Below, in pieces: positions 13,349 through 31,176 of a stretch of 64,000 bases of DNA. The DNA comes from Cyanidioschyzon merolae (taxonomy: Eukaryota). The position numbers and the translations under genes were made by a program. The DNA lies in the NCBI GenBank assembly GCA_000091205.1, contig AP006495.2, one strand, 5' to 3'. Numbering within the stretch: the first letter of the stretch is position 1; each line of letters opens with the position of its first letter. Below the pieces are notes generated by a model. The model saw only the letters and a list, made by a program, of their open reading frames with translations, did not search any database and was not told the DNA's origin.

Positions 13349-16014
13349 GCAATACTAGAGGCAAAATTTAGCGCCTTGCGCCGCCTCCACGGCGACGCGT
13401 GCAACAAGTTACCCCCTGTGGTGGTCCAGTGAAAGCACGAATAACCTGGAGGCGTTTTCGTGTTTGGGTACAATCATCCGCGCGGCGACCGTGTGCGCCT
13501 CATGATCGACGCCGTCGTCGGCGCCATCGCCGGTGCCGCGCCCCCAGGCGATGATGCGCGTGCGCGCCTGGCCCTGCAGTGGCGCGGGAGGCGTTCTGTC
13601 GAGGCCGCTGCCCCGATGCCCTCCGACTGAGCGGCAGCGCGAGCGCAGGCGCAGCGCGAATCGTACGCGACGTCGATGCTGGATATGCGTGGATGAGCGC
13701 TCCAGTTGTTCGGATGTGTACATCGTAAAGTTCGGGTCTTTTCTAGACATCTTCAACAACGGCAGTGTTTCAGGGATTTTACGACCACCGATTTCTTTCA
13801 TTCTCTTTTATTTCTGGATTTACAGGAATTGCACGTTCCTGTTTATCCTGCTTCTTTGCGCATCGTTGCAGGATGGTGATGGCAGCACGCACGACCCGAT
13901 TGGGCGGCTTCCGGGTGTTGTTCACGCATTCCATGGAACGGACGGTGGATGCGCTGTACTCGCCGCCTGCCGTGTTCATCTTCTTTGTGTGCAGCCTCGG
14001 TACGCATTTTACTTCTGTGATACTTTGCTGCGGTCAGGTGTAACCGTATACCTATTGCAAAATCGGATTCGAGGACCGCCCTGCGGTGCGTAAACGACTG
14101 TTTCATTGCTCGGCGCATGCTTCTGGTGGATACAGTAGCTGTGCTCGATACCCATCACCGCTTCCGTGCCAGGTGCCGTACCCGCAGGATCACGGGCTGC
14201 TTCTGGGCGATTACCTCCGCGAGCAGTTTATCAGCTGCACACGCAAGCGCGTGCTATTTCATTGGATAGGGGATTTTTGGAAAGTGATTTGTCGTAGGGT
14301 GAAACGAGTGCCAGAAGGGGAGTCCGGGCTGAAGAACAAGTCGAGCGACTTATCCGTTTAGGCTCCATTCGAGCCAACTGATGACGTATTCGTCATGGGA
14401 ACAGGTCGCCGCGTTGACTCATGTCGGAGTCCAAGACCCTCTTCTGTCTAAACGGAAGAGACGGGAGTGCATGGAGTTTATGCTTTGGGAGGCGTTGAAC
14501 TGGCGCAGAATGCCGCTTGCCTTCCAATGACGTTGTGAGGAGGATTTGCCTTTCGAACGGAATAGATTGTCTAACATAAAAAATGCAGTGAAGCTTCAAC
14601 ATGGGCTTGTGAACAAGTTGTCGGGAGACGACGTCGAGCCCTATTCCTCGTCAAATCAGCGGCGCGAATTCCTGCGCCCACGAGTTGCCGTGAAACACGA
14701 CAATCGAACACTTGGACAGTGCACGATAGCTGCATAAAACAGGTATAGAATCGAGAAGCGTAGAGACTTGTATGTATGAGTTGGGACATGATTTCGGCTA
14801 TTTTTCATGCATGTATTCGATTGCGTCGTAAGAGTCACTCCAGAAACTCGAACGAGAATCCCAAAACTGCATATGCATCCATAAGCCCTTGTTGTTGAAC
14901 CTTACGCATTCAGGCTGCACATCAAAAAAAATTTCGAGCGCAATCGAACCGCATGAACAGAGCGAGCAGTTCAGTTTTCAGTTTTCATCTGACTCGGATG
15001 TAGGAGGCTCGTTCACCGCAACCCCCGAAACTGTGGCCGAGTGCCTTCTAGGCGCTGTTTTTCGGTGATCATGGTCAAGTGCAGAAGCCGTTCGTCAGCA
15101 ACTGCGGCGAGCCGAAGCGCGCGTTGTCTCTAGATCGCCCGGGCGATATTCCCATGGCCGAAAAACTCGACACGAAAAGGCAGGCGGGTGCAGCGCCTGC
15201 CCCAGCAGGACAGCGTCACGCAAAACAACAACCGCAGGAGTTTGGTACTCGAGAATCGAACATATGGCGATGTATTCCAGTCTGGAGCATTTGGAAAGGA
15301 CACCCTTCGGTGACGCTTCGCTGCAGGCAATCGAGGTGCCGCTGCCTTGAACGACACCTACTCAGGCCTTTTCATATGAATATGAGGATCTGATGCCAGT
15401 GTGGTGCGACTCAGGCGATCCACGGTCTCCGAGGCGACCGCGTGACATCGCAAACAGCAGCAGCAGCAGCAGCAGACAGCTTGTATTGCACGCTCACCCT
15501 TCTGGTACAAAGTGGAAGTATTGGAACCACAGTCCGCTTTTGTGGATTACCCAAAGACAATTGGCTCAATGCCTATAAGCTTACGCTCTACAGCACAGCA
15601 GCAGTAGCAGCAGTAACATGTCAGAGACTGGTCGTTGCATGGGTATAGCAGTACTCGGGCGCAGCGCGCGCATGTCGAGGTCATGAACAGGAGTTGGCGC
15701 ACGAAACACCACGATGCATTCTTATACAGTTTTGTCACAAAAGATCTATTAACGCGGTGCCGCCGTACGTTGCGATCGCTACGCAGGCGCCGTCGCGGGC
15801 AACACGTCGCCGCGCTCGCTGTCCACAGCAGCAGCGCACCGACGGCGTAGCGCGTCGACGACGAGTCCGATGCATCGGATGCGGTGTACGCGCCGCCTCT
15901 ACCCCCGATGCTACCTTCTAGCAACGGGTAGAGGCCGCGAAACGCTTGTAGCGACCTGTCGTCCGCTACAGCCTGAAGCGTAACACCTGAGCTCTGAGAA
16001 ACACGAGGAGGCTT

Positions 16015-16959
16015 GTGTGCGGTATTCTGAGGTGGCGAGGATCAGCGTTTGAGTGTGTTGGAAAGTGTTTGCGGACGATGACGAGCAACGCCTCTGTAAC
16101 AGGGCCACACCCGGAGAACGGGACGGTGCAACCCGGCGCGGTTCCTGTTCAAGACGCCATGCTGACCGTAACCAACGAGCACGAGTTTGCAGATTCTTCC
16201 GGGAACGTTGCTGTTGGGGAGCAGGCGGCCAGTCTTATGTCAGGGCAAGTGTCGGACACTGCACCGGCATCGCCGCGACGACCCGTACGGACTTCGAAGC
16301 TGGACCCGAACGCACCCCCGGCAGGCCCCGGGTCCGAAGGTGGTGCGCTACCCTCGCGCCGCGTCTACGTTGGCAACCTCGCCTGGAGTGTTTCTTGGCA
16401 AGCTCTGAAAGATCATATGCGCAAGGCTGGCGAGGTGGTTTTCGCGGAAGTGTTCACGGAACGGGACGGTCGCTCGCGCGGTTGCGGGGTGGTGGAGTAC
16501 GCCACGGAGGCCGATTCCGCGAACGCCATTGCCACGCTGAACGACACCGAGCTTCAGGGGAGGCTGATATTTGTGCGCGAGGATCGCGAACCGAACCAGC
16601 CTCTGCGGCGAAACAAGACGTCAGCGTCAGGGTTTCACGGGGCGAACGCCACTACCGGAAATCGCCACCACGAAGCTCGGGGACGTAACCAACCGCCGTC
16701 TTTTCCATCGGATAAGGGTCGCAAGATCATCGTCTGGAACTTGCCATATTCTTATACCTGGCAGGACCTAAAGGACGAATTTCGAGCCTGTGGGAACATT
16801 ATCCGCGCGGACATCTTAATAGACCAGGAAGGGCGCAGTCGCGGCGCCGGCACGATTGTCTTCGAATCAGAGGAGGACGCACAGCGAGCGATCCAGATGA
16901 TGGACCGTGCTGAACTGGCCGGAAGAATCGTGGATGTACGCCTCGACAAGTATGCATAA
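16015..16959 (+). CDS. RNA-binding protein with two RRM (RNP-type) domains. The true start is probably the internal Met near 16078, because the ORF track also translates GTG starts as M
   Basis: RNP motifs in RRM1 (VYVGNLAWSVSWQALKDHMRKAGEVVFAEV...RGCGVVEY) and RRM2 (KIIVWNLPYSYTWQDLKDEF...RGAGTIVFES). Confidence 0.8.
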   Translation: MCGILRWRGSAFECVGKCLRTMTSNASVTGPHPENGTVQPGAVPVQDAMLTVTNEHEFADSSGNVAVGEQAASLMSGQVSDTAPASPRRPVRTSKLDPNAPPAGPGSEGGALPSRRVYVGNLAWSVSWQALKDHMRKAGEVVFAEVFTERDGRSRGCGVVEYATEADSANAIATLNDTELQGRLIFVREDREPNQPLRRNKTSASGFHGANATTGNRHHEARGRNQPPSFPSDKGRKIIVWNLPYSYTWQDLKDEFRACGNIIRADILIDQEGRSRGAGTIVFESEEDAQRAIQMMDRAELAGRIVDVRLDKYA

Positions 16960-17457
16960 GGACAGTTCCTTGGTTTGGGGAGACAGAGACCGACACACCA
17001 TTTTGCGAAGCACCGCAGTAGCTGGAGCGCATTCCTGGAATCGTATTTGACTTGGGCCGCCATCGTGATTGCACTGCACACACCACGCATTCGAGACCCA
17101 GTACCCGATTTTGCCGTGCCAGTCCCATTGGGGAGCTTTTCTTCGAGCTCCCCGCCTGCTAAATCCTTCCAGCTACTCTCATGACACGTCGTTCGAGAGA
17201 GGGCTCGCGCGCAAACGAAATCTTTAGCAGCATCTTGCAATCGGGGACCACCAAGGCATATCTACGGATGCGCTGCTCGGCCAAGTTGCAGTACAAGTTT
17301 GCATGTACACTAGCACTTGATTCAGGCCGAACTTCGACGTACGGGGCACTGTCGCCAACAACCTCATGAATAATTGCGCCGAGTCGTTTTCGAACCGAAT
17401 CTGGAATTGAACGCTCTGACTATGAGGCCTTGGTGCGGGGCGTGCATTTGCGCTGCA

Positions 17458-18308
17458 TCAGCCGCATACGGATGCGTCTTCGACGGCGCAGTCCAGGACC
17501 CGAACTCCTGGTTTGTGTGCTTCGTGGTACATGTAATCATCACGGTTTGTTGAGTAGGGGAAGAGGGGCAGGATTGCCTCGTCATGAATTTCGTTCGTGA
17601 AGTCGGCGAAGCCTACGTAGAACGCAAGCGACCCGGCAATGATCGCGCGTGTTGCTGCCGGGTACTTGACACCACTCGCAAACGTTGTAATGGCCAGCAT
17701 GAGGTATATTAGACCGACGAAAAAGACGGTAAGACTCAAAGCGTACTTCGTTCTCAGTGCCTGGGCACAGAGCATTGGGAAACGACGCAGTAAATTACGC
17801 AGTAAATGAAGGTACCTGCTCTATCGGTTGCGGGGGAGCGACTCGGATTGAGCAGCTCCACCAGAAGCTGTATGTCACGAGCGCCCCAGAATACGCTGTA
17901 GATCGAAAACGCGGTTGCGCAGAACAGGTTATCATATCGGAAACACCACATACCGGCAATGAACTGATCAAGATCGCCAGTGATGAGCGCAACCGCGAAC
18001 AGGTTCTTCGCGGTGGTCCCGTGTAAGTCCACGTCCACGAGAAGCGTCGCGATACCGAACGACCGGAGACCACGTGGCGCCGGATTCGCCGCAGCACTCA
18101 CGTGCTCGACCACGGAAGAGTGCTGCTTGAGCGCGTCAACCAACGGGGACTCGCGAGCCGCTGCGTCACTGTTTGCCGATGAAAAACCTCCGCTTCGTTG
18201 CGCAGCGGCATATGCAGCGAACTTTACGCCCTGATCCAGGCTAGGGACTTCCGTACTGGACCGAAGGGCGTGCGAGAGGGATTCACCAAGTGATTGAAGC
18301 GCAGCCAC
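17458..18308 (-). pseudogene. GPR1/FUN34/YaaH (acetate uptake transporter) family paralogue with an apparent 1-nt frameshift near 17775-17790 and substitutions in conserved motifs. It is either a pseudogene or a sequencing frameshift
   Basis: ORF 17754..18308 (NPAPRGLRSFGIATLL...AGMWCFRYDN...) and ORF 17458..17775 (..AQALRTKYALSLTVFFVGLIYLMLAITTF..) together align colinearly to the neighbouring intact paralogue. They sit in different frames and overlap by about 20 nt. Signature NP(A/T)PLGL is changed to NPAPRGL. Confidence 0.55.
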
Positions 18309-18654
18309 TTGCTACTCGAGCTGCTGAGCCTCTGAACGCAGGTTTTCATTTTCCGTTGCCAGTTTATTCCAATAACTCGCCCGTGCACTACGAAGGACCT
18401 ATTACAGGTTCGCGCCACGCGTAAACTACAATACAAAAACTATGGTACGCAGATTATGTTTCCCGAAAGATACATGCATGCCGTATCTGCAGTCGATCGC
18501 ACGGTCGGTGTTGAACGAGATCAATGTGTCCCGGGTACACGACGAAAAGCGTCCTGCTGCTCTTGGCGTGCAGCAGGACGTCCGGGCGTCGAAATGGTAT
18601 CCCATCCGGAACCGAACGCGCCCTCAACTTGGACGCATCGAAATCGTTTTCCCC

Positions 18655-18878
18655 AGTGAACTGCGACTTCGCGTGTCCGCTGCGGAGGCGGAACGTGGGT
18701 TCAGTCCAATACCTTCCATTTCTGTTCTTCTAGGGAGAAAAGTGGCATCTTGGACTTACATCCAGTGAACTGCGACTTCGCGTGTCCGCTGCGGAGGCGG
18801 AACGAGGGTTCGGTCCAATACCTTCCATTTCTGTTCTTCTAGGGAGAAAAGTGGCATCTTGGACTTACATCCCAGCGC
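18655..18878. repeat. Perfect-ish tandem duplication, 2 x 112 bp, in the intergenic region upstream of the frameshifted paralogue
   Basis: agtgaactgcgacttcgcgtgtccgctgcggaggcggaacg(t/a)gggttc(a/g)gtccaataccttccatttctgttcttctagggagaaaagtggcatcttggacttacatcc occurs twice back to back. Confidence 0.8.
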
Positions 18879-18946
18879 GATTTGCGTTCGTGCACCCCTG
18901 CGATGGTGTATACGGACCCAGGTGCGCAGCGAAATGCTGGCCCTAA

Positions 18947-19867
18947 TCAAACAGGCGGGATATCGACGGCGCTCTTATGAGCATGCGGCCGAGGTACGTA
19001 CCGCTTGCCTTCTTCGTAGTCGCGAGCGTGTCGCGGATGTGGAAACAAAGGAATCAGCGGTTTCTCATATATTTCGTTGGTAAAGTCTGCTAGACCCACG
19101 TAGAAAGCGAGCGATCCGGCGATGATCGCACAAGTCGCTGCAACGTACTTGACGCCCTCCACGTATGCAGTAATTGCTAGGAAAATGTACACGAGGGCGA
19201 CAAAGAATACCGTCGCGCTCAAGGCGTAATTCATTCGCAGTGCTTGAACTAATAGAATCAAGGTCAGGATGCAAAATATCACATAAAAAATACAGGTTCC
19301 CGCGCGATCAGCGGACGGGAAAAGTCCCGGATGGAGCAGCTCCACTAACAGCTGCACGCCACGCGCACCCCAGTATGATCCGAACAGGGAAAAAGCCGTT
19401 GCGCCGAACGTATTGTTCCGCCGGAAACACCACATACCCGCGAGAATTTGTGCCAAACCCCCAATAATGAGCGCCACAGAAAAAGTGTTTTTAGCAGTCG
19501 CACCGTACAGATCAGCACCGGCTAGCAGCGTCGTCACTCCAAAGGCAAACAGACCAAGTGGCGTCGGGTTCGCCACCATACTAGCCAGGGAGATCACCTG
19601 GGACTGTTGCTGTAGCGCGTCCAAGATCTGCATACTGTCTCGATGATGAATTTGCTCCTCTAGAGAAAGGCTCATATTTCGATCGTTTTGCGAATCGAAA
19701 CGCGCAGCCAGGCACTTGTGAGCAGCGCAAGCCTCGAACTCGCGTGCCGCGGCAGCCGCACCCGCCGCTACCTTTTGTTGGAGCGCGGTCACGCGCTCTT
19801 CCAAGAGGCTGATCCTCTCAAGCAAGGAAAGATTTCCCAAGTCCGCGTCGGTCATCAGGAAACGCAA
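18947..19867 (-). CDS. GPR1/FUN34/YaaH family putative acetate/succinate transporter (306 aa) with an N-terminal coiled-coil-like extension
   Basis: NPTPLGLFAFGVTTLLAGADLYG...FSVALIIGGLAQILAGMWCF...ATAFSLFGSYWGA, with six predicted TM helices. Confidence 0.8.
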   Translation of the reverse strand: MRFLMTDADLGNLSLLERISLLEERVTALQQKVAAGAAAAAREFEACAAHKCLAARFDSQNDRNMSLSLEEQIHHRDSMQILDALQQQSQVISLASMVANPTPLGLFAFGVTTLLAGADLYGATAKNTFSVALIIGGLAQILAGMWCFRRNNTFGATAFSLFGSYWGARGVQLLVELLHPGLFPSADRAGTCIFYVIFCILTLILLVQALRMNYALSATVFFVALVYIFLAITAYVEGVKYVAATCAIIAGSLAFYVGLADFTNEIYEKPLIPLFPHPRHARDYEEGKRYVPRPHAHKSAVDIPPV

Positions 19868-20984
19868 CCCTGTCTCTGGTAGGTACTACCTGTCTGCGGG
19901 TAAGTCGGGACGCAGGCTGCCGCCTGGGAAACGCTCGGGGAATGCTCTGCCCCAATGCCTCAGGGCATTGCTGGCGCGTCGCGCGATCGCGCCGCTTCTC
20001 TTCGGGTGCTGCTGCATCCTTGAATCTGATTAGGGGATATCCACGTTCGCCACTGTTACTGGCGATTGGGAGGGCGTTTATCAATCCTAATAGAACACTG
20101 AAACTCAAAAAGCCACCAGCATACTCTTCTCTTCGATTATGAATCAGTCGGTTGATCCTCTGGATGCCGAGACCTCCACGAGGCCGCGTGCTTGCGCCCC
20201 AGGACGCGGGCCAGTTGCCCAGTGCAACGCACGTCGCAACCTGTCGGCTGCCGGTTGTGCTCCCGCACCAGAATTCTGTTCGAAAATATCGCCCTGCCAA
20301 AAGAATCAATCAAGGCTTGACCAACGATATTGGTCGGTGCGCGGTCAATCACGTATTGATCCCCGTCGGAGAAGGCTGTATCCCAGACAACGACTCGCCG
20401 ACCTCGTGCCGCTCGCCCCGGTGCCGACGCTTTCCTAAATGCACGTGGCGCTCGCACTGACATCAAGTCTCGAGTCGCGGAAGCGCGTCCACGAATCGTG
20501 CGCCCATGGAAACACGGATCCTGCAAAAGTCGCTCCATCGGCGTTTTCAAACAAAAAAATCCAAATATGGATGCCACAGCATCTCCTCCATCGCCCAGAA
20601 CACGCAAAGCGTACCACAATGTCCCATGCAGTATGAACCTTGTCACCACTCGGTGCGTCGTCATCGTCAGCGCTTACACCAAATTTGGCGGTATGTGCAG
20701 CGTCGGCGCTTGTTTCTCGTTCAGCGTTCAGTGGCGTGCGACAGGCGCCGCCGATCGCGCATCCGCGAAACATGCGCTGCTCGATCCGCTGGGCCCGCGT
20801 CTATGCGAACACGATATCATGTCGAACGAGAAACCTACAAAGGCCCGTACAGCGTGCATTACACCGGAAAGTCATCGACGATTACCGGTATTCGCAGTTG
20901 GCATTGTTCTTCTCTCCATCGCAGAGACGAGCATATCTCGGTTCGTCAGAGAAGTTACCGACTGTGCCTTGATCATTTATTCGA

Positions 20985-21662
20985 GTGGACAGCATGCAGA
21001 AATCTAGTTTTATATGGGCGTTGATTTTCGGTGTGTTCGCACTATGGCTCCAAGTGCCTAGTGTCCAGGCTTGGTCGTACACCATGACACCGTTGTACGA
21101 GTTCACGCCTACGTGCACGCCGACGCCAATGTGTACGCCCACACCCACTTGTACGCCGACGCCGACCTGCACACCCGTCTTCGAGCCAAAGCACTATCAC
21201 GAGTACGTGCTCTGTGGCGACTATACCCAGACTGGAGACATTGAAAAATGTGAAAAATACGGATGTCGCTGGATTCCGACCAATTACTGCGGACTGGAAA
21301 ACGAATGGGCCCAGTACAAAGGCGTCTGCGTGGTGATCCCGAACAAGGCCCCCGAATGCCAGAATATTCCATACTTCAAGCGCATCAACTGCGGATACGA
21401 TGGAATCACGCCGCATGAGTGCGCCGAGCGCGGTTGCTGCTGGGAAGGCGGCCCGAATCGTTACAACTGGTGCTACTACCCTCGCAAGTGCCGCGATGTC
21501 TGCGTCGAGGAGGTCACAGCCGAGGGAGAAGTCTGTGTGGAATGGACCAAGCCCAAAGGTTACGGCAAGCAGGAAGAGAAACCGGTCTGCATCAAGTGGA
21601 AGCCCAAGACCAAGTGCCTCAAATACGTCAAAGAATGCAGTGACGAGTGCTACAAACCCTAG
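20985..21662 (+). CDS. Secreted Cys-rich protein with a Thr/Pro linker repeat and a trefoil (P-type) domain, preceded by a degenerate P-like module
   Basis: Signal peptide MQKSSFIWALIFGVFALWLQVPSVQA. (TPTC/TPTPMC) x5 repeat. KRINCGYDGITPHECAERGCCWEGG fits the trefoil signature R-x2-C-x-[FY]-x3-T-x3-C-x4-C-C-W. Confidence 0.7.
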   Translation: MDSMQKSSFIWALIFGVFALWLQVPSVQAWSYTMTPLYEFTPTCTPTPMCTPTPTCTPTPTCTPVFEPKHYHEYVLCGDYTQTGDIEKCEKYGCRWIPTNYCGLENEWAQYKGVCVVIPNKAPECQNIPYFKRINCGYDGITPHECAERGCCWEGGPNRYNWCYYPRKCRDVCVEEVTAEGEVCVEWTKPKGYGKQEEKPVCIKWKPKTKCLKYVKECSDECYKP

Positions 21663-21920
21663 ACAGGACCGAATGGGATGACGACCAGCACCAAGGCCTC
21701 GTGGCTTCCACGACCAAAGTGTATCCAACGGAATTCAATCAGTCAGTCAATCAATCTTACATCATGGATCGATTCGGAACGATGCAAGGAACGATCGCAC
21801 GACGACGACGTCGCCGCCTAGCGCAGCGATGCCTGCACGCATCGCGTCAGTATCGATCACCGGGTGAAGCGGGTGCGTGCGTGCGCGCGCGCCTAACGTC
21901 CGCCAGGAATGGACACGCGG

Positions 21921-21955
21921 CGTGCGTGCGTGCGTGCATGCGTGCGTGCGTGCAC
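21921..21955. repeat. (GCGT)n/(TGCG)n alternating purine-pyrimidine microsatellite in the 460-bp spacer upstream of the oxidoreductase gene
   Basis: gcgtgcgtgcgtgcatgcgtgcgtgcgtgcacgg. Confidence 0.6.
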
Positions 21956-22122
21956 GGATCACCTGGAACAGATGCGTGCTCGTGCAAAGAGAAAAAAGAC
22001 AAGGAATGCCTGATATAAAGGAAGCGTGAATGACTGCTCTCTTATGAACCAGTTGCTTCTTGTGACTGCGTCCCAATACCTTAGCAACCCAAGCGCTTGA
22101 GACACTGCACCCACTTCAAATA

Positions 22123-23634
22123 ATGTCAGAGCGTCCGCGAGTACTGGTAATTGGTGCGGGCGCTGCCGGTTGTGCAGCTGCTTGGAGCCTGGCTCGCTCC
22201 GGCGACGCAGTGGCTGTTGAAGTCTGGGAGAAGGCTGCTGTGGCGGGAGGTGTCGCATCAACGCAGCGATGGAAAGGGTACTGGTTCAACGATGGTGTCC
22301 AGGGCGGTGCACCGTGCTACGCAAACACGTTTCGCTTGCACGCTGCGGCGGGCTTCGAACCGCGTCCGGTTCACATGACGATCAACTTCGGGAAAGGTCC
22401 AACCTGGTGGAATAATTACGGCGAGAAGCTGGAAACTGATCTCGTGCGCCAGTTGCGCCCGGAAATTCGACGTTTCGGGCAGCTACTGGAACGAGTGAAC
22501 CGCCTTCCCTGGTTGTATATCTGGGTTCCAATAGCGAGATTGCTGCGCTGGCACGGTTTCTCGAAATCGTTCATCAATTTAATGGTTCTTCCGCTGACTG
22601 CGCTTTTCTTCGGGACCGGGAATCAGACTCCAAAAGTGTCAGCGGTGATTGTTGCCCGCGTTTTTCTCGACCCGCACATGCGACTCTTTGCCTACGATCC
22701 GGATCGATTGCTCTCGACACAGCCGCTCATGTTTGCCTTCGATGCCCTGGAAAGCATCTACACTGCAATGCTGAAGCATCCTGGCATCGAGCGCGTGTGC
22801 TACGAACGCGAGGCGTGCCGTCTTGAGGCGCTGCCAGATGGCGTCTGGGTGACCGACCACAACCAACGACGTGAGCGCTTTTCGCAGGTCATTCTGGCGA
22901 CCGATGCGCAGACTGCCTTGAAGTTACTGGGATCGGGAGCTACCTTCATGGAACGTAACGTGCTCGGACGGGTCCGCTATTTCCATGACGTCACCGTCAC
23001 GCATACCGACGAGGCATACATGGACCGATACTACCAAATGGACCCCGATCGGCGCACAGATATGTACTTTGTAAGAACAGACCCAGTGGATCCGTCCTGC
23101 ATTGATATGAGTTTTCTGCTCTCCGCATACCAGGAGCAATTGCGGGATGCGCACGGCGAGCCGCTGCCGCTCTTTCAGACGATATTTCTGAACAAAGAGG
23201 AGCGGCATCGCTGGACCATGGATGAAATTCGCCGCGATCAGATCGTACTTGTGCGCTGGTGGAAGCAAATGTCGCATGAATGGAGGCATTTCGTGCAAGT
23301 TGTTCCGTTTGTGCGGTTCATTCAAGGTGGGCGTCACGGAAACCTCTGGTACGCCGGCTCCTGGACCCTGATGAATATTCACGAGGTGGCGATCTGCTCC
23401 GGGCTAGCAGCCGCAGAAGCTTGCGGCTGGGCGCTGTCGAAGCAGACGGGTAAATCCCCGATCGGTGCGTATCCGTTCGAACGCGACGCCGATGCAAGCC
23501 GCTTCTACACCATGTATGCGAAGACCGCCTACGGAAGTCGATTCCGAGAGCGGTTGCGAAATGCGCGCAGGGCATCCGCGGCAACCGTGGAACCACTGCA
23601 GCCTTCGGCGCCAGGCACCCCCATGGAGTCGTAG
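22123..23634 (+). CDS. FAD/NAD(P)-binding oxidoreductase (amine-oxidase-like Rossmann fold), 503 aa
   Basis: N-terminal dinucleotide-binding motif VLVIGAGAAGCAAAWSLARSG...VWEKAAVAGG. The C-terminal GSWTLMNIHEVAICSGLAAAEA resembles bacterial NAD/FAD oxidoreductases of the amine-oxidase clan. Confidence 0.7.
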   Translation: MSERPRVLVIGAGAAGCAAAWSLARSGDAVAVEVWEKAAVAGGVASTQRWKGYWFNDGVQGGAPCYANTFRLHAAAGFEPRPVHMTINFGKGPTWWNNYGEKLETDLVRQLRPEIRRFGQLLERVNRLPWLYIWVPIARLLRWHGFSKSFINLMVLPLTALFFGTGNQTPKVSAVIVARVFLDPHMRLFAYDPDRLLSTQPLMFAFDALESIYTAMLKHPGIERVCYEREACRLEALPDGVWVTDHNQRRERFSQVILATDAQTALKLLGSGATFMERNVLGRVRYFHDVTVTHTDEAYMDRYYQMDPDRRTDMYFVRTDPVDPSCIDMSFLLSAYQEQLRDAHGEPLPLFQTIFLNKEERHRWTMDEIRRDQIVLVRWWKQMSHEWRHFVQVVPFVRFIQGGRHGNLWYAGSWTLMNIHEVAICSGLAAAEACGWALSKQTGKSPIGAYPFERDADASRFYTMYAKTAYGSRFRERLRNARRASAATVEPLQPSAPGTPMES

Positions 23635-24961
23635 CGGGTACATAGCGTGCAGCACACGCTCGGCTGATGACGATGGTTGCCACCCGCTGCCTGATCGACG
23701 AGGCGCGGCAGTTCGGTGACGCAAGTTGCCGATGCGTGGCCCCGGCTTGCCCGAACTGGACACCAAGTCTATATCAGTCGAACATGGAGTCGGCGCTGGT
23801 CAGTTCCCGGATGACGAAATACGAGACGCACGCTGCTTGTGTGTGGAATGCGTCGGCCTATGCGTTGCACTACCCGAAAGTGGCCTAGACGCCTCACGTC
23901 CGACAATGTTCATGGAGGTGCGCGTAGCAACCCTGGATGCTGCGCGATGCAACCCTATGATTCAGGTTACCGTGTTTGATCCAGCAGCCGTCGAGTTCAG
24001 AACACTGGTCGCACACTATTCGGTGAGACGGCTTTCACGTCCGGCACCAAACACGCCCGCTTCCGTACACTGGCCTGGGCGTGACCTCGGCATGTGCGTC
24101 GCGCAGATAACCAGCGTCCTGGGTTCGTGTTACCGTTCGCTGCGCCTTCGTCGTGCCAAAGTGTCTGCAGCGATATCACCGAAGCGTCTTGGATACGTGC
24201 AGTGCGATTGGCGTGCAACGCTCGTACACCCAGGGAATGCCGCTTCGAGCTTCGCGGCTCGCGGGCGACGTGTAGACAGCATGAGCGAGCGCCCTGGTAG
24301 CGCGTTCGGAGCGCGCCACGCACGAACCCCAGACGCTCGCTGACGCCGGCGCTCTGACTCAGCGTCCACCCATTTGTGTGCAGTCTGAAAGTGCTTCTTG
24401 GACCAGCGATCAATCGACAGGCTTTTTACGGGGGCCTCCGCACCGACCCGATGACAAGGGCAACAACGACCAGCAGCGCAATCGCATTTACATTCGTCCA
24501 CTCGATGGGCGAGTTTTTTACTTAAGAATAAAGGCGGACCCCGTGTGATTCGAAGAGAATCCACATCCATACGCGCCTGGACACCACTGTTATCGTGGTG
24601 CAGCATAGGACCCTCATACCGATATTTCGAGCGTTCAACATGCATACCGGGACAAGGAATCGAAGAAATGTGGTCCCTTTGATCAAGTGATCGATCGAGC
24701 GGATGACGCAGTCGCTCGGTGCGTTTGCAGCGTCGCCTGGGAGGTTCGTCGGACGGCGAGAAGCCCGCAGCGGACCCCACACGTCACCTCCGCGTAACCC
24801 CGAGTTGCTTCAAGTCAACAGCGGATATCGCCAGCGGCGCACCGTGTGCATCGTGAGCCTTATCACGAACGTTCGCAATTTCACGATCACTACCGTTCCA
24901 GGGCGAAATGCGATCAAGTCGCTTTATATAACGTAATGCCTCGTAAGCGTAGAGCTTATGC

Positions 24962-27901
24962 TTAGCACACACCTTGCCAGGTTGTCACATCGCCGCTTAC
25001 GCTGAGCGTTGGCTTCCGCACGACAACGCGTTCACCAGCATGCAAATAGAACACGAAACGCTCTAGCGGAACGTGCGCACAGCGAGACAAGTTGGACGGC
25101 GGCGGGAGTGCATCCAGCGCCTGCAACGTCAGCCTCAGTTGCAGCGACGTCGATCCATTGGCAAGTCGCTGTCCCATTGCTGCGATTCGCCAGAAACAAT
25201 AATCGCCTCGTTGGTAACCGTAAGAAAGACCGTCATCCAAATAGAGCATGCCACGGGCTTGGAATCCAGCATCCAAGGCAACGTGCAGAGTCAGCGGATC
25301 CCCGAGCATCAGGCTGCTTGAGCGACGCTGTCGCTCCCAGCGCGGTATGATCGAGCCACCGCGTTGGAACACATACATCGATGAGAGTGCTGGTTTTGGA
25401 TAAACTAGGGTATCTTGCCCCCGATGGACAAGATGCTCGCCAGAGAAAAGTCGTCGTGTGCGCGGCAGTACTGGATACCAGCAGAGCGAAGCTGGTCCCG
25501 GCAGTGTGATGCGATGCGTTGACGGGGCTGCTTCCAGTACTGGAGCAACCAGCAAGGCGTCGCCCAAGAGCCAGCTAGACTGAACTCCCGCCAGCGACGA
25601 TTCATCAGGAAACACGTAAAAAAGCGGCCGAATGACAGGTAGCGTGCGTTCGGCCGCGAAGAGCACGTACCAGTACGGTAGCAATGCGTAGCGCTCTTGA
25701 ATCGCCTCTCGAATGAGGCTCGTATACGGTTCACCGAATAACCACGGCTCCCGTCGCTTGGTGTCCAAGTGCGCGTGACCACGGAAAAACGGCTGATAGG
25801 CGGCTGCTTGATACCAACGCGTCAGCAGGTCGGCTTGCGGGTTCCCGAAAAAGCCCCCAACATCCGCCCCGACAAACGCGATGCCCGCCACGCTGATCGA
25901 GAGCAGCATCGGCACCGAGGCTGCCAGGTGTGACCACTGGGCAGCGTTGTCGCCTGTCCAGACTGCCCCGAATCGCTGGCTTCCCGTGAAAAAACTGCGG
26001 GAAAGAACGAAGGGTCTCAGGTTCCCTTGCCGGCCGCGATAAAGGCCCTCAAAGGTCGCTCGGTGCACCATGTGTCCGTAGATGTTGTGGATATCGGAAT
26101 GTTCTAAAGCGCCCAGCCGATGGCGGACGTTTTTCGGAAAGGTGCCTTCGGGTCCATTGAACACTGAAGGCTCGTTCATATCAACCCAAATGTGGAGGTG
26201 CTCTGTCATGCCATGGTAGAACGACGGAACGAAACACGAGCTCCAGCCGGTCTGTACGCGCGGATCCATAAAGTCTGGGTAGTGACTCTTTCCTGGCCAG
26301 CACCAGCCCTCGTAGATAGAGACGCCGTCACCAGAGCGAACGTACCAGTCCTCCTTCAGGGCTCGTTCGTGCAGCGAGTAATTCGGTTCCGCCTTGATAT
26401 GCGGATCCACGATGGTGACCAGCTTCCGTTTGGCCTTCTCGAAAAGCGTTTGCTGCAGGCGAGCGGGGTCAGGAAATTTCGCTCCGTCCCAGGTGAAGTA
26501 CTTCTTGTTGTCTGTGTGCTCGATATCCAGCCACAGCACATCGTACGGAATGTCATTCGCATCAAACTGACCATCCACATGGAGGGCGTCCGCCTCATCA
26601 CGATAATTCCAGCGCGACTGGTGATAGCCCAGTGCAAACACTGGAGGCAGTGGTGCATGTCCCGTCAGTAGGGCCAGCTGTTGCGAGACCTCCACCGGAG
26701 ACGGGCCCGCAAACACGAACATCTCCGGGATACCTCGTTCAGAAATGAAGTGCGCATGTGGCATCGCGGTTCCGCGCTCCTGGTCTAACAACGGACACAA
26801 GTCTACGTAGGTTTCGCTTGCCGGCATCCAGAGCGCTCCAACGGTATGCGCGGATCCATTGAGAGCCAGGATGAAGGGTATCGATCCGTAGAGACCCAGC
26901 TCGCTATTCAGTTCGTATTCGAAGACGTCCAGGTTGTAGAGACGAAGAGGCTCTCTCGTACAGGTCGTGGGTAAGCGCAGATCCAGCGCATGTTCCGGAA
27001 GGCCGTACAACCCAATAGCACGAGGAAAGGCAACATCTGCCGCAACGGAACCAGCTGCTGTGGTATTTGCGTCCAGCGGGATCCAAGCGAGGAGCTCCGC
27101 TGCGTTCCAAACCAGTGAAGGACGGGTAGTGGTGGCAGTGGAATTCTGCAGCAAGGCACACCAGTCCGCAACGTTGTTGAAGAGCGCTATCCGACATGGT
27201 TCGTGTTGGACCCGCAGTACGTTATAGACGGGTTCTGTTGAGGCGTGGCTTGTACTTGCAGTAACGATAACGGTTTCCGTGTCCGACGAAAGCCATGCTG
27301 CGGACGACACGTACGGACAGGAGGTTGCTGTACTCGCAGCGAGTCGCTCCAACTGCAACCACGGTTCCCGATACATCATAACGTCTTCGACTGGTGAGTA
27401 GCGTTCATACTTTGAGACGGATGCGTGCTGCTTCCTTCGTCGCAGGAGCCCAAGCTGAATCGTGTCGCTGGGTGGAGGCTCACGTACTCGAATCGAGAAG
27501 ATCGAGTGCGTAACAGCTCCTACTTCGAGTTGGAGCTGAGACAACGTCCCCGAATCATTTGCTTCCCGCTGCAACAGCTCAAAAATGAGAACCGATGATG
27601 ATGTTTTCTGCAAGCGAAACGGCTCCGGCTCTCTGAGTCGGCATCGAGTACCTGGAGCCGTAGCGTTTGCCGCTAGTTCCTGTTGCGAGGTCTGTTGCTC
27701 TCGACGCTGTCTGTGGTAGGCACAGAAACTTTGCGTCGAACAGCGGGCGTATTTGCCTCGTTCTGCAGCCTGAACGCCTGCCAGTTCCCAGATCAGAAAG
27801 CATAAAACGAAGATGAAGCCAACGGTGCTCCACAGGGGATACTGCGACCCTGCTCGGAACCTAGCGCGCTGCATGACTTGTTCCAGCGCATGTACGGACA
27901 C
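24962..27901 (-). CDS. Glycoside hydrolase family 31 alpha-glucosidase (glucosidase II alpha / neutral alpha-glucosidase-like), 979 aa, with an N-terminal signal anchor
   Basis: GH31 catalytic region HIWVDMNEPSVF, GDNAAQWSHL, WYQAAAYQPFFRGHAHLDTKRREPW. Hydrophobic N-terminus VGFIFVLCFLIWELAGV. Confidence 0.9.
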   Translation of the reverse strand: MSVHALEQVMQRARFRAGSQYPLWSTVGFIFVLCFLIWELAGVQAAERGKYARCSTQSFCAYHRQRREQQTSQQELAANATAPGTRCRLREPEPFRLQKTSSSVLIFELLQREANDSGTLSQLQLEVGAVTHSIFSIRVREPPPSDTIQLGLLRRRKQHASVSKYERYSPVEDVMMYREPWLQLERLAASTATSCPYVSSAAWLSSDTETVIVTASTSHASTEPVYNVLRVQHEPCRIALFNNVADWCALLQNSTATTTRPSLVWNAAELLAWIPLDANTTAAGSVAADVAFPRAIGLYGLPEHALDLRLPTTCTREPLRLYNLDVFEYELNSELGLYGSIPFILALNGSAHTVGALWMPASETYVDLCPLLDQERGTAMPHAHFISERGIPEMFVFAGPSPVEVSQQLALLTGHAPLPPVFALGYHQSRWNYRDEADALHVDGQFDANDIPYDVLWLDIEHTDNKKYFTWDGAKFPDPARLQQTLFEKAKRKLVTIVDPHIKAEPNYSLHERALKEDWYVRSGDGVSIYEGWCWPGKSHYPDFMDPRVQTGWSSCFVPSFYHGMTEHLHIWVDMNEPSVFNGPEGTFPKNVRHRLGALEHSDIHNIYGHMVHRATFEGLYRGRQGNLRPFVLSRSFFTGSQRFGAVWTGDNAAQWSHLAASVPMLLSISVAGIAFVGADVGGFFGNPQADLLTRWYQAAAYQPFFRGHAHLDTKRREPWLFGEPYTSLIREAIQERYALLPYWYVLFAAERTLPVIRPLFYVFPDESSLAGVQSSWLLGDALLVAPVLEAAPSTHRITLPGPASLCWYPVLPRTRRLFSGEHLVHRGQDTLVYPKPALSSMYVFQRGGSIIPRWERQRRSSSLMLGDPLTLHVALDAGFQARGMLYLDDGLSYGYQRGDYCFWRIAAMGQRLANGSTSLQLRLTLQALDALPPPSNLSRCAHVPLERFVFYLHAGERVVVRKPTLSVSGDVTTWQGVC

Positions 27902-28599
27902 AACGACAGTTACCGACTGGACCTCAAACGCCGTCGCCTACACAGAACAGACCGCGTGCAACTGAGCGACCCCTAAACCTATCGCCTGCCTAGGCACGCT
28001 GCGTCTACTAAGAAACGACGCTGAGGACGATTTGGCTGGAGCCGCGGCGACGACACTGCGCAGCAGTGCCTTTTGAACGATCCATAGACGAGTGTGGATC
28101 GCTGGGGAACTGGGTACTCCTCGATCCTTGGATACCTAGAACGCTGCATCGTAAGCTGGCTGTCTAGTTGTTTGGTTCGTTAACTCTAAAGAGCTCCCAG
28201 TGATGTTTGCTATGTCATACCGATGCGTTTGAACAGCATCACTGGGAGTGCACCGGCGATGCTGGCATCTAGGCGAGAGACGATTATGCTGCTCCCGATA
28301 TGTTGACATTGGCACGACCCAACGCGCTGTTCCAAGCGCTGGAGCACTACGCTGTGTCTTGAATCTGAATATTTTCGCGGCTAATGTGAGGCTTCTGTTT
28401 CACCAGTCGGTTGCGTTTGTTCATCCGGTGAAGGCTTGCTTGCGTTGAACGTTCCGTCGACGTCGAAGGCATCAATGATCCATGCGTAGCGAAGCTGGTT
28501 ATGTCCAACGCGCCGCCCTGAGGCATGAACCATCATGTGTGCACTTTTCGCTTCATACGAATGCTGTTGTGGTTGCGGATGGATAGGGGATCTGCTGGG

Positions 28600-31176
28600 C
28601 AAACACTCGAGCATCGATGCAGTGTCTGAATAGCTCCGTTATACACAGTGCACCGGTGTCTAGACCACGTGCGTCAGCATGCTGTTTATGATTTTCTGTG
28701 TTCCTCTGGCAGGTGTTTAACAGAAAGCATGTGTCCTGTTGCTTGGAGAGAGACAGAGGTGGCAGAATGACGTTATGTTGTCATTGACGCTTTGCGAAAA
28801 AACAACCTTACTTGTACGAGAGAATTACTCCGCAGTCAGCGGATGGATGATGCACGCTTCTCGCATACCTTATGCTGAAAGCGCATCAAACGCGGAATCT
28901 GTCGAGCTGTATCATCAGGACGTTCTGCTCGTAGATCCATTCCACGGTGTGCATTGCATTCGATATACTGTCATAGAAGGTACAGGATGTGAAGTTTCCG
29001 TACCATTGATACGAAAGATAATGACGCGAGGCGGATGAGCGAGAAAGAAGCTCGCCCTCGTAGGAGACCAGTGCTCGTCTGCAACACACACGATGGATGT
29101 CGAACGGAGACGGGAACGCTTATGATAGGAGCGGTGGGTTTTCGTTTCACACGATGAGAATTCATGGTCGACAAATGGTAGAGTTATATGTTGCCCGTCA
29201 TAATGGGGCGAATCGGTGTTCGTAACGAAGAGACAAGCGAGCGTGACGGCGGGATTAACACGAGCGACGATGCGATTGTGGTATCACCTGTAAACCGCCT
29301 ATCCGACAGGATCACCCATGAGCTGATCCTCCGTGGAAACACTTTGTGGCCTCTCGTTCGTAAATTCATCTGTGCTGTTGTGAGACAACGTCAGTATCCG
29401 TCCCTCGTACTGGGTCAAGGAGCACGCAGCTGGGCACGGTGCTGGACTGCTCGTGGTGCCTGCCTATTCTCGTTGATTCGATCCCGTCGAAGACGTCGTC
29501 TACGTTGGCAAACGCTGTGAGGCGCTGACGGAGCAATAGACGAGTTTTTTGTATCTGTGGCATCGTTCTTGAGCGAGTCGTTCACTAGCTTCACGAACCC
29601 TGAATTGCGCAGTTGCTTCTTCATGTGAGCGGAGGAAGGAGCGGAAACGCGCGCGACTGTTGGCGGTCGTGCTCGCGACGCAGACGAGGACGAAAACATA
29701 CGAAAGAAAGCGTATATACATGTATAGAAGAGGAGTGTCTGCGTACTGCATTCCATCCAGTGCGTCTGCATGTCGGGGAAAGCGACCGGATACGGGGCAC
29801 AGCGCCAGCATTCATGTCACTCCAACCACAGAAAGGCTAACGAGCAGAAACCCATCTGACAGAGAAGGACAAGACGCTTTCGAGAAAAGGACGTCAAGGG
29901 ACAGGAAGGCGAAGCTGCTGGAGCGGAACCATACGTCTGAGACGGTGGCTAGGCCTCGCTCCAAAAGAAAAACCCAACAAGCGAGAGCATTTCCTCGAAC
30001 GTGCGGTGCAGGCGCCATTGGGGATCACGTAGCCTCTGATTCGAAGAAGACTCCGCCCCGCTTGCCTTGCCTTGATGGACCCTGGCGAGGAACGGCTCAC
30101 AGGGGTTCCGGATCCAGGACTGCCTGCTGTCCACGACACTCCGGAAGGTTTCCATCAACTCTTCGTGTGACAACAAAACTGATCCGTCGGGCAGATGACG
30201 CCGCACGACCTGCTTGTAGAGTAAGAAGCTTACACGCCCGCTTCTTAGAGAACGTTGAGGCGTCTCCGCACCACTCCGGCGATCGGAACATCAACAGCAC
30301 AGGTTTCCAGAAAAGACGAAACCAAACCCCAAACGCAAATGCAGGTGCATATCAAGTGCTTCGTGAGGCAGCGCCCTGCAAGCCTTGTCTCCGGTGTGTC
30401 CGATGTACCAGGTGTGCGGTAACCTGCACGGCCCCGTCGAGTGGTGCTCATTGAAGGGGTGCTCTGCCTCAGATCGGATACGGGAACGTGGAAGTCTCGT
30501 GCGAACGATTTTGAACAGGAGTTGGCGAGCGTGCGCTGCATCCGGCAACAATGTCGGTTGCACGGAGGCAAGAACCGTCCATTCGTGACTTTTGCCCATG
30601 AGACGGAAGGGCGAATGACGGACAACTCGCGTCACTTAGTGCTGGGCTGCAGTTCTAGACGTCGTGCAGCGCGCAGAGGCTGCAGTCGTGCTCCATCGAC
30701 GGGAGCGTTTCCCGTGGGCTAGCGTGGATGCTCTACGATTCCCATGGATGCGTTCACGACAATACACGCGCATCATGAGCAAAGGTACGCTCTGAGACAC
30801 ATCGAGAAGGAGCGTGTGAAACAGATACGGATGCGCGAGATGCGCTACGGGCAGCGGACCGAACCTTCGATGACGAGACAATGGAGAGCGAGAAGCGTGC
30901 CTGGTGTGACACCACCAGCAACATTGCGGACACGCACTTGCTGCACTACGACATGAATATCTCGATGAGCACAGCGAAAAAATGTGTTTCCAAGGCGCCC
31001 TGCAGCTTTATGTCGTGCGAGAGTTATATTTTTTGAAAGAATCGTCTTGTACTCATTGTAGGCAGTGTACTGCAACGCCGGAACCTTGTGCTGAAAACCG
31101 AATCAGAGGCCAGGAGAGAGAGCGCCTTGGCGTTCCGCCTCGTGCACTGCACTAGCATGGGCTGCTTCAAAAACCA
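28600..31176. repeat. Inverted repeat copy A, about 2.5 kb. The inner boundary is sharp at 31176. The outer boundary decays gradually between 28480 and 28650
   Basis: Reverse-complement match to 47465-50040 at about 97% identity in the outer part and about 99% in the inner 1 kb. The ORF track shows mirrored near-identical ORFs (for example 30744..30956 + is identical to 47685..47897 -). Confidence 0.9.

Follow-up and report, generated by a model that had tools for sequence, protein, structure and literature searches.

The DNA analysed here, referred to below as the window, is a stretch of 64,000 nucleotides from the acidothermophilic red alga Cyanidioschyzon merolae 10D (GenBank assembly GCA_000091205.1, contig AP006495.2). 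It derives from an interstitial region of chromosome 13 in the nuclear genome and has a G+C content of 55%, with long intronless open reading frames (ORFs) spaced ~3.4 kb apart. It contains a short ORF for a predicted secreted protein with a single trefoil (P-type) domain, followed by an amine-oxidase-like gene and, on the opposite strand, by a gene for a GH31 alpha-glucosidase (Table 1). Exact-sequence matches were obtained for 10 flanking proteins (BAM80956-59, 61, 62, 64, 66 (CMM090C), 68 (CMM093C) and 69), and the flanking genes up to CMM090C/CMM093C are ordinary and single-copy. A subtelomeric position of the trefoil gene was considered and rejected, since no telomere repeat occurs within the 64-kb window.

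Table 1. Coordinates of the trefoil gene, the parts of its predicted product and the neighbouring features within the window.
Feature	Position	Strand	Description
Trefoil-only secreted protein (predicted), coding sequence	20994..21662	+	222 amino acids (aa) from ATG; stop codon 21660-21662; based on ORF list and orthologue starts
Predicted signal peptide, aa 1-26	20994..21071	+	MQKSSFIWALIFGVFALWLQVPSVQA then W; based on hydropathy, n/h/c layout, V-Q-A at -3..-1
Thr/Pro/Cys-rich linker, aa 38-61	21105..21176	+	TPTC-TPTPMC-TPTPTC-TPTPTC-TP
Upstream Cys-containing module, aa 70-115	21201..21338	+	EYVLCGDYTQTGDIEKCEKYGCRWIPTNYCG...GVCVV; conserved in the Cyanidium orthologue
Canonical trefoil (P-type) domain, aa 122-163	21357..21482	+	CQNIPYFKRINCGYDGITPHECAERGCCWEGGPNRYNWCYYP; Pfam PF00088
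C-terminal Lys/Glu/Cys-rich tail, aa 164-222	21483..21659	+	7 Cys; predicted beta-hairpins
Peptide stretch of the predicted trefoil protein			INCGYDGITPHECAER
Intervening amine-oxidase-like gene	22123..23634	+	503 aa, FAD/NAD-binding; exact match to BAM80961.1; Pfam NAD_binding_8, DAO, Amino_oxidase
GH31 gene (context)	24962..27874	-	970 aa from ATG at 27874 (full ORF 24962..27901); BAM80962
Two tandem GPR1/FUN34/YaaH genes	17458-18308; 18947-19855	-	Acetate/succinate transporter family
Antisense ORF	21042-21728	-	228 aa
ORF called in metagenome contigs	20506-21024	+	172 aa

The preliminary description of the locus had given the trefoil ORF as 225 aa (20985..21662, +). That frame does exist, from an in-frame GTG at 20985, three codons before ATG 20994, but the latter is probably the true start, because every orthologue starts with the corresponding Met, and the product would then measure 222 aa. 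Its N-terminus is composed of MQKSS, a hydrophobic core (FIWALIFGVFALWL) and QVPSVQA-W, where the hyphen marks the putative cleavage site. With a mean hydropathy of 1.4-1.9 over the first 25 residues, this is the only hydrophobic stretch in the protein, in keeping with the clear signal peptide reported earlier; orthologue N-termini have diverged in sequence, yet all are signal-peptide-like. Neither a KDEL/HDEL endoplasmic reticulum (ER)-retention motif nor an N-X-S/T sequon is present in the trefoil protein. The linker had been read as (TPTC)x5. It actually consists of one TPTC, one TPTPMC and two TPTPTC units, with four cysteines in C-x5-C-x5-C-x5-C spacing, and Tandem Repeats Finder resolves it into 3.3 copies of an 18-bp period (21105-21163). 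The mature protein would comprise ~196 residues, of which 22 (11%) are Cys and ~42 belong to the trefoil domain.

The trefoil domain was detected by the Pfam Trefoil profile (PF00088), which has a gathering cut-off of 21 bits, with a score of 48 bits (E = 1.1e-12) and an alignment that spans positions 1-43 of the 43-position profile (residues 122-163). Its six cysteines, C122-x10-C133-x9-C143-x4-C148-C149-x10-C160, follow the trefoil pattern exactly, the pattern being taken as C-x(9,10)-C-x9-C-x4-C-C-x(9,10)-C. The PROSITE-type P_TREFOIL signature ([KRH]-x2-C-x-[FYPSTV]-x(3,4)-[ST]-x3-C-x4-C-C-[FYWH]) matches RINCGYDGITPHECAERGCCW, and no further site with either the signature or the Cys spacing is found in the six frames of the 64-kb window. 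Among structures in the PDB, the best matches of the domain are porcine TFF2 (E = 6.3e-14), TFF1 (2e-9) and TFF3 (9e-8 to 4e-7), whereas the trefoils of GH31 enzymes score far lower in the same comparison (MGAM, 1e-3; SI, 8e-3; GAA, 0.1-0.85); measured by E values, the algal trefoil is nearer to the TFF peptides than to the GH31 trefoils by four to ten orders of magnitude. The presence of one canonical trefoil module, as originally proposed, is confirmed far beyond chance for the predicted protein.

Other small disulfide folds were considered for the Cys modules, and EGF, knottin, WAP and TIL were rejected for want of profile matches. With the Kazal profile included, none of these families matched at E <= 1, leaving Trefoil as the sole significant profile match. 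The same searches bear on whether the protein might be a knottin-like antimicrobial or a protease inhibitor instead of a lectin. Being small, predicted to be secreted and dense in disulfides, with flanking Cys modules that have no family match, the protein has features consistent with such a defensive role; however, its only recognisable profile is Trefoil and the residues through which TFF peptides contact sugar are conserved (see below), and we regard this alternative as very unlikely.

The flanking modules do not extend the trefoil assignment. Upstream of the canonical domain, a degenerate P-like module had been proposed, whose motifs read EYVLCGDY...EKCEKYGCRW.... In this region Pfam finds nothing at E <= 10, BLASTP detects no resemblance to the canonical trefoil module, and profile-profile alignment (hhalign) with 120 diverse trefoil domains gave a probability of 17% over 16 columns around an EC-x4-GC(C)W motif. 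The Cyanidium version reached 12.8 bits with Pfam Trefoil, in a partial alignment (E = 0.12). The proposal is not supported statistically: the likeness to a trefoil is, on these alignments, apparently a local resemblance and not a demonstrated domain. The C-terminal tail has no Pfam match and no hhalign match to trefoil, and strands are predicted in it by low-confidence AlphaFold2 (AF2) models.

Orthologues of the trefoil protein were recovered only in Cyanidiales-type sequences, where the homology search yielded two clusters of relatives. The first consists of hot-spring metagenome proteins (P0001; 97% identity) and has no C. merolae member from NCBI; the second contains Cyanidium caldarium KAK4536204.1 (P0002; CDCA07G2229 / Chr07_G2229), which is 51% identical over 95% of the length and is named 'P-type domain-containing protein' in UniProt. 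This value falls within the range of neighbouring genes compared between the same two species (GH31, 49%; SWIB, 45%; amine oxidase, 63%), and the trefoil gene evolves about as fast as the housekeeping genes around it. Of the 22 cysteines, 17 are invariant across orthologues, including all six of the trefoil and, in the Cyanidium comparison, five of the seven in the tail; the total, as counted from sequence, is even in both species (22 in C. merolae and 20 in Cyanidium). Identity on a par with that of housekeeping neighbours, together with the invariance of most cysteines, speaks for a functional gene that is at least as old as the common ancestor of Cyanidium and Cyanidioschyzon. At the nucleotide level, no similarity was found between Cyanidium and the window.

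Closer relatives of the locus are found in environmental data. Four metagenome contigs from JGI/ENA (L001, L002, L005 and L006) are 98.9-99.2% identical to window positions 14001-30000 over more than 15 kb, intergenic DNA included, indicating that very close kin of strain 10D are abundant in environmental assemblies. The copy number of the 18-bp TPTPxC repeat varies, such that the protein measures 222 aa in 10D and 228 aa in ~99% identical metagenome strains (L001-L006, ~10100-10190), and the linker of P0001 has one extra repeat unit compared with 10D. A Cyanidiococcus-like variant (P0077, 218 aa) differs in its signal peptide and repeat. A profile scan of metagenomes revealed nothing beyond the orthologous locus.

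Exact-sequence look-up matched no C. merolae accession to the trefoil protein, whether it was entered in its GTG, ATG or two internal-Met forms, nor to any of seven other ATG-started ORFs between 19.9 and 22.1 kb. In the interval 19867-22123, which separates the genes for Gpr1 (BAM80959) and the amine oxidase (BAM80961), the accession numbers allow for exactly one annotated protein, BAM80960. The most economical reading appears to be that the trefoil ORF is missing from the 10D protein set. Such an absence from the 10D set of the searched collection, and from the published gene lists discussed below, would be expected if the ORF were a decaying or silent relic, that is, an unexpressed copy of the trefoil family whose frame has been kept by chance. 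However, the frame is intact not only in 10D but in all metagenome strains, where changes in repeat number are in frame, the divergence from Cyanidium equals that of essential neighbours, and all domain-defining residues are invariant along with the 17 cysteines. A relic therefore seems extremely improbable.

A standalone secreted trefoil protein is not a new kind of thing in C. merolae. 'Trefoil factor' genes were marked at the chromosome ends in the complete-genome paper (Nozaki 2007, PMC1955436), and Cho 2023 described a family, expanded by subtelomeric duplication, whose members are built from kelch (K), trefoil (T) and hint (H) domains; these KTH proteins also contain a signal peptide and a linker rich in Thr/Pro/Ala, and among them are T-only variants, one of which is encoded by a non-subtelomeric gene in Cyanidium, CDCA10G3079 (PMC9812998). 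Fifteen TFF-like genes have been counted in C. merolae, 13 of which show expression chiefly in the diploid phase, which has a cell wall, and none in Galdieria, and the authors suggested convergent evolution for low-pH protection (Plant Cell 2026, PMC13353863). Several C. merolae trefoil-factor genes are induced by nickel stress (PMC12112623), and the supplement of that study lists no trefoil entries. In the published K/T/H list for C. merolae (22 genes, CMA001C to CMS508C), none is on chromosome 13, the subtelomeres of which are listed without K/T/H genes, and the corresponding Cyanidium list (12 genes) does not include the Chr07_G2229 orthologue (OG0000296; PMC9812998 Suppl. Dataset 5).

The window protein shares with the KTH family the organisms in which it occurs, a signal peptide, a Thr/Pro-rich linker and a trefoil (the 'T' architecture). 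Compared with the published descriptions, however, it has no kelch domain, the cysteines of its linker are regularly spaced, and Cys modules lie on both sides of the trefoil; moreover, its gene is interstitial, single-copy and syntenic in Cyanidium, whereas KTH genes are mostly subtelomeric and multi-copy, with near-identical paralogues. What is new here is a trefoil-only lineage within the Cyanidiales repertoire that is interstitial, single-copy and conserved in synteny, and that is probably unannotated.

A profile search of 1.84 billion representatives returned 384 matches at E <= 1e-3. Among the best 150 of these, all matches outside the protein's own cluster align to the trefoil region only, indicating that the flanking modules are lineage-specific, and no kelch domain was found in the long proteins scanned from this set. 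There is a weak suggestion that many animal trefoils resemble this domain more closely than the subtelomeric trefoils of K+T proteins do. The distant matches included P0262 (591 aa), a GH15 glucoamylase whose two ends each bear a trefoil, and P0191 (1303 aa), a GH31 enzyme in which six trefoils are combined with a CBM26 starch-binding module, so that trefoil modules recur on alpha-glucan-active enzymes outside the animal GAA/MGAM/SI set.

The vertebrate peptides TFF1-3 are the best sequence matches of the window trefoil and, for a low-confidence model, its top-ranked fold matches, and they have an identical six-Cys spacing. Like the window protein as predicted, they are secreted, and they work in an acidic, protease-rich setting. 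The architectures differ: vertebrate TFFs are 60-106 aa long and contain little besides one or two trefoils, whereas the mature window protein combines one trefoil with unrelated Cys-rich modules and a T/P/C repeat. TFFs are also divalent, through dimerisation by a seventh Cys or through tandem domains, in contrast to the one trefoil of the window protein. Lectin activity for GlcNAc-alpha-1,4-Gal and an association with mucin are traits of the vertebrate peptides, and we know of no mucin partner in the alga. In TFF3, the only side chains that touch GlcNAc-alpha-1,4-Gal are those of Asp20, which precedes Cys2 and is Asn in TFF1/TFF2, and Trp47, which precedes Cys6 (PMC7221086). The vertebrate TFFs and the window trefoil keep the same sugar-contact positions: these read RI-N-CGY (Asn132) and YN-W-CYY (Trp159) in C. 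merolae and RI-D-CGY and YN-W-CYF in Cyanidium, and they are conserved in all algal orthologues.

Taken together, we consider it probable that the ORF is a real nuclear gene for a soluble, secreted, disulfide-rich protein, laid out as a signal peptide, a T/P/C linker, a Cys module, a trefoil and a Cys/Lys-rich tail, with an extracellular glycan-binding role. A secreted or cell-wall lectin-like protein, which the preliminary description had offered as its fallback idea, is the reading we favour for this standalone and probably secreted protein with one canonical trefoil. The protein would be translocated into the ER, where up to 11 disulfides would lock it and the Thr-rich linker would probably be O-glycosylated, and would then be exported to the cell surface or matrix. 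There, the trefoil domain, presumably resistant to acid and proteases, would bind glycan through the cleft used by TFF peptides, and the protein could serve as a structural or protective lectin in the extracellular layer of an organism that lives at pH 0.5-3. Such an extracellular, acid-stable, glycan-binding role is likely.

An alternative function for so many cysteines would be metal or stress buffering, in which an extracellular or periplasmic protein binds heavy metals or buffers redox in metal-rich acid springs. The Cys content of the mature protein, the regular C-x5-C repeat of its linker and the nickel induction of several C. merolae trefoil-factor genes (e.g. CMR001C; PMC12112623) are all compatible with this function, although the nickel data concern other family members and not the chromosome 13 locus. 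Further, the even number of cysteines in both species, the canonical, disulfide-forming set of six in the trefoil and the acidic, oxidising surroundings count against it. As a matter of general chemistry, Cys-rich domains that are secreted usually have all their thiols oxidised, and thiols bind metals weakly at pH 1-2. We consider a metal or redox buffer unlikely.

The preliminary description had stressed that the trefoil gene is a near neighbour of a GH31 gene, at 3.3 kb, and had raised the possibility of an unfused trefoil-GH31 partnership. The distance is correct as measured from the trefoil stop codon to the GH31 stop codon, but the amine-oxidase-like gene separates them; the GH31 gene is transcribed towards this intervening gene, in convergent orientation, and its promoter is on the far side, ~6.9 kb from the start of the trefoil gene. 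The GH31 product is identical to BAM80962.1, named 'alpha glucosidase 2, alpha neutral subunit' at NCBI, and matches the Pfam families Gal_mutarotas_2, Glyco_hydro_31_2nd and Glyco_hydro_31_3rd; it has the usual N-terminal beta-sandwich, TIM barrel and C-terminal domains. As had been noted, it appears to lack the trefoil module: the Pfam Trefoil profile, so clearly matched by the trefoil protein, has no match in the GH31 protein at E <= 1.

In the PDB, the GH31 protein is closest to GANAB (5f0e, 9.6e-203), followed by Chaetomium GII-alpha (6e-165), with MGAM (2e-115) and lysosomal GAA (~1e-78) far behind; judged from sequence, the gene is orthologous to that for glucosidase II alpha, the enzyme that trims N-glycans in the ER. 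The known partner of glucosidase II alpha is the beta subunit, and we know of no organism in which it carries a trefoil module. The GH31 enzymes that do carry trefoils are GAA, MGAM and SI (PMC12805851), and they belong to a different clade. Although their trefoil modules belong to the same Pfam domain as the window trefoil, they are fused in cis to the catalytic body, whereas the window trefoil and GH31 are encoded by separate genes on opposite strands, and they are weakly similar to the window domain (E of 1e-3 to 0.85, compared with 6e-14 for TFF2).

In a partnership, the free trefoil would act in trans as the module that GAA, MGAM and SI carry in cis. The 3.3-kb proximity, the conservation in Cyanidium caldarium of the order trefoil (+) / amine oxidase (+) / GH31 (-) and the trefoils of other alpha-glucan-active enzymes (GH31 P0191 and GH15 P0262) are consistent with this idea. 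It is nevertheless not supported, because the GH31 gene is apparently a glucosidase II alpha orthologue, of a clade without trefoils and partnered by the beta subunit, because the trefoil domain is far nearer to the TFF peptides than to GH31 trefoils, and because, in a eukaryotic nuclear genome, the two genes are separated by a third, lie on opposite strands and share no promoter. Nor is the conserved order specific to the pair, since it extends over a collinear block of at least 8 genes that also includes those for a sigma factor, a 514/631-aa ORF, an RRM protein, a large ORF and a SWIB protein. Lacking an N-X-S/T sequon, the trefoil protein cannot itself be a substrate of glucosidase II, and it has no ER-retention signal. 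Finally, ~15 other trefoil genes are located at chromosome ends, with no GH31 neighbours mentioned for them (PMC9812998 Suppl. Dataset 5). The proximity of the trefoil and GH31 genes reflects general block synteny, a neighbour and not a partner, and we rate the partnership as highly improbable.

Several points weigh against the favoured reading of a secreted, glycan-binding trefoil protein. The signal peptide is inferred, as are O-glycosylation, the disulfide map and the binding of glycans. As regards the three-loop fold of trefoils, with 1-5, 2-4 and 3-6 disulfides, the AF2 models, built for the full-length protein with 3 sequences and for the mature core with 5, are of low confidence (pLDDT 52 and 59); when such a model was searched with Foldseek, TFF2, TFF1 and TFF3 ranked first, with E values of only 0.02-0.12, and the match to TFF1 had a TM of 0.64 and a root-mean-square deviation of 3.2 A over 44 columns. 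The exact trefoil protein of the window is not in a collection of 15 billion proteins in which every tested neighbour is present, so that the gene may be unannotated in 10D and hence without any report of expression. As to the target glycan, haploid cells of C. merolae 10D are wall-less. The location of a trefoil gene two genes from a GH31 gene is also a somewhat unlikely coincidence; given ~16 trefoil genes, ~4,800 genes and one or few GH31 genes, we roughly estimate the chance of finding a trefoil gene within two genes of GH31 at a few per cent, and with ~15 other trefoil genes in the genome, it is not very improbable that one lies near a GH31 gene.

Further observations concern the surroundings of the trefoil gene. 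The collinear block shared with Cyanidium contains small rearrangements: in the comparison of Cyanidium contig L007 with window positions 1-39000, a Telomere_reg-2 gene (921 aa) without counterpart in the window lies between the sigma factor and RRM genes, the Gpr1 genes are lacking in Cyanidium, and the cryptochrome and RRM genes differ in place or orientation. Of the two tandem Gpr1 genes in the window, the downstream copy is intact and corresponds to BAM80959, whose NCBI name, 'unknown transcriptional regulator', seems to be wrong. At the upstream copy, the frame is broken into a pair of overlapping ORFs of 105 and 184 aa, with no accession slot between BAM80958 and BAM80959; this copy is probably a frameshifted pseudogene or else reflects a sequencing or annotation problem. 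An antisense ORF spans the entire trefoil gene, and prokaryotic gene callers applied to the metagenome contigs give an ORF that overlaps the trefoil gene start (Table 1); neither has a family match on record, and both look like spurious frames driven by G+C.

The GH31 neighbour adds nothing to the significance of the trefoil gene, and the locus should not be treated as a glycosidase-lectin system. Cyanidiales are the only non-animal group whose TFF-like proteins have drawn attention, and the origin and function of these proteins are openly called unknown. A joint reading, in which the trefoil-only gene would be the ancestral founder copy whose trefoil module was recruited into the fast-evolving subtelomeric kelch+trefoil family, a true homologue of animal trefoils and an acid-stable surface lectin all at once, is a tentative one that we hold to be rather doubtful. 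An unusually canonical domain with the sugar-contact residues of TFFs would indicate homology, through shared ancestry or lateral transfer, and not convergence; if the founder reading were true, homology with animal trefoils would thus counter the convergence that has been suggested (PMC13353863). Should the gene truly be missing from the 10D set, that set would need to include it, and the number of TFF-like genes given in the literature would need correction. As a single-copy, slowly evolving and syntenic trefoil gene, it offers a cleaner handle on this family than the ~15 near-identical subtelomeric copies, and, in a genetically tractable organism such as C. merolae, it is suited to knockout, to glycan-binding work at low pH and to the rooting of the trefoil-domain phylogeny.

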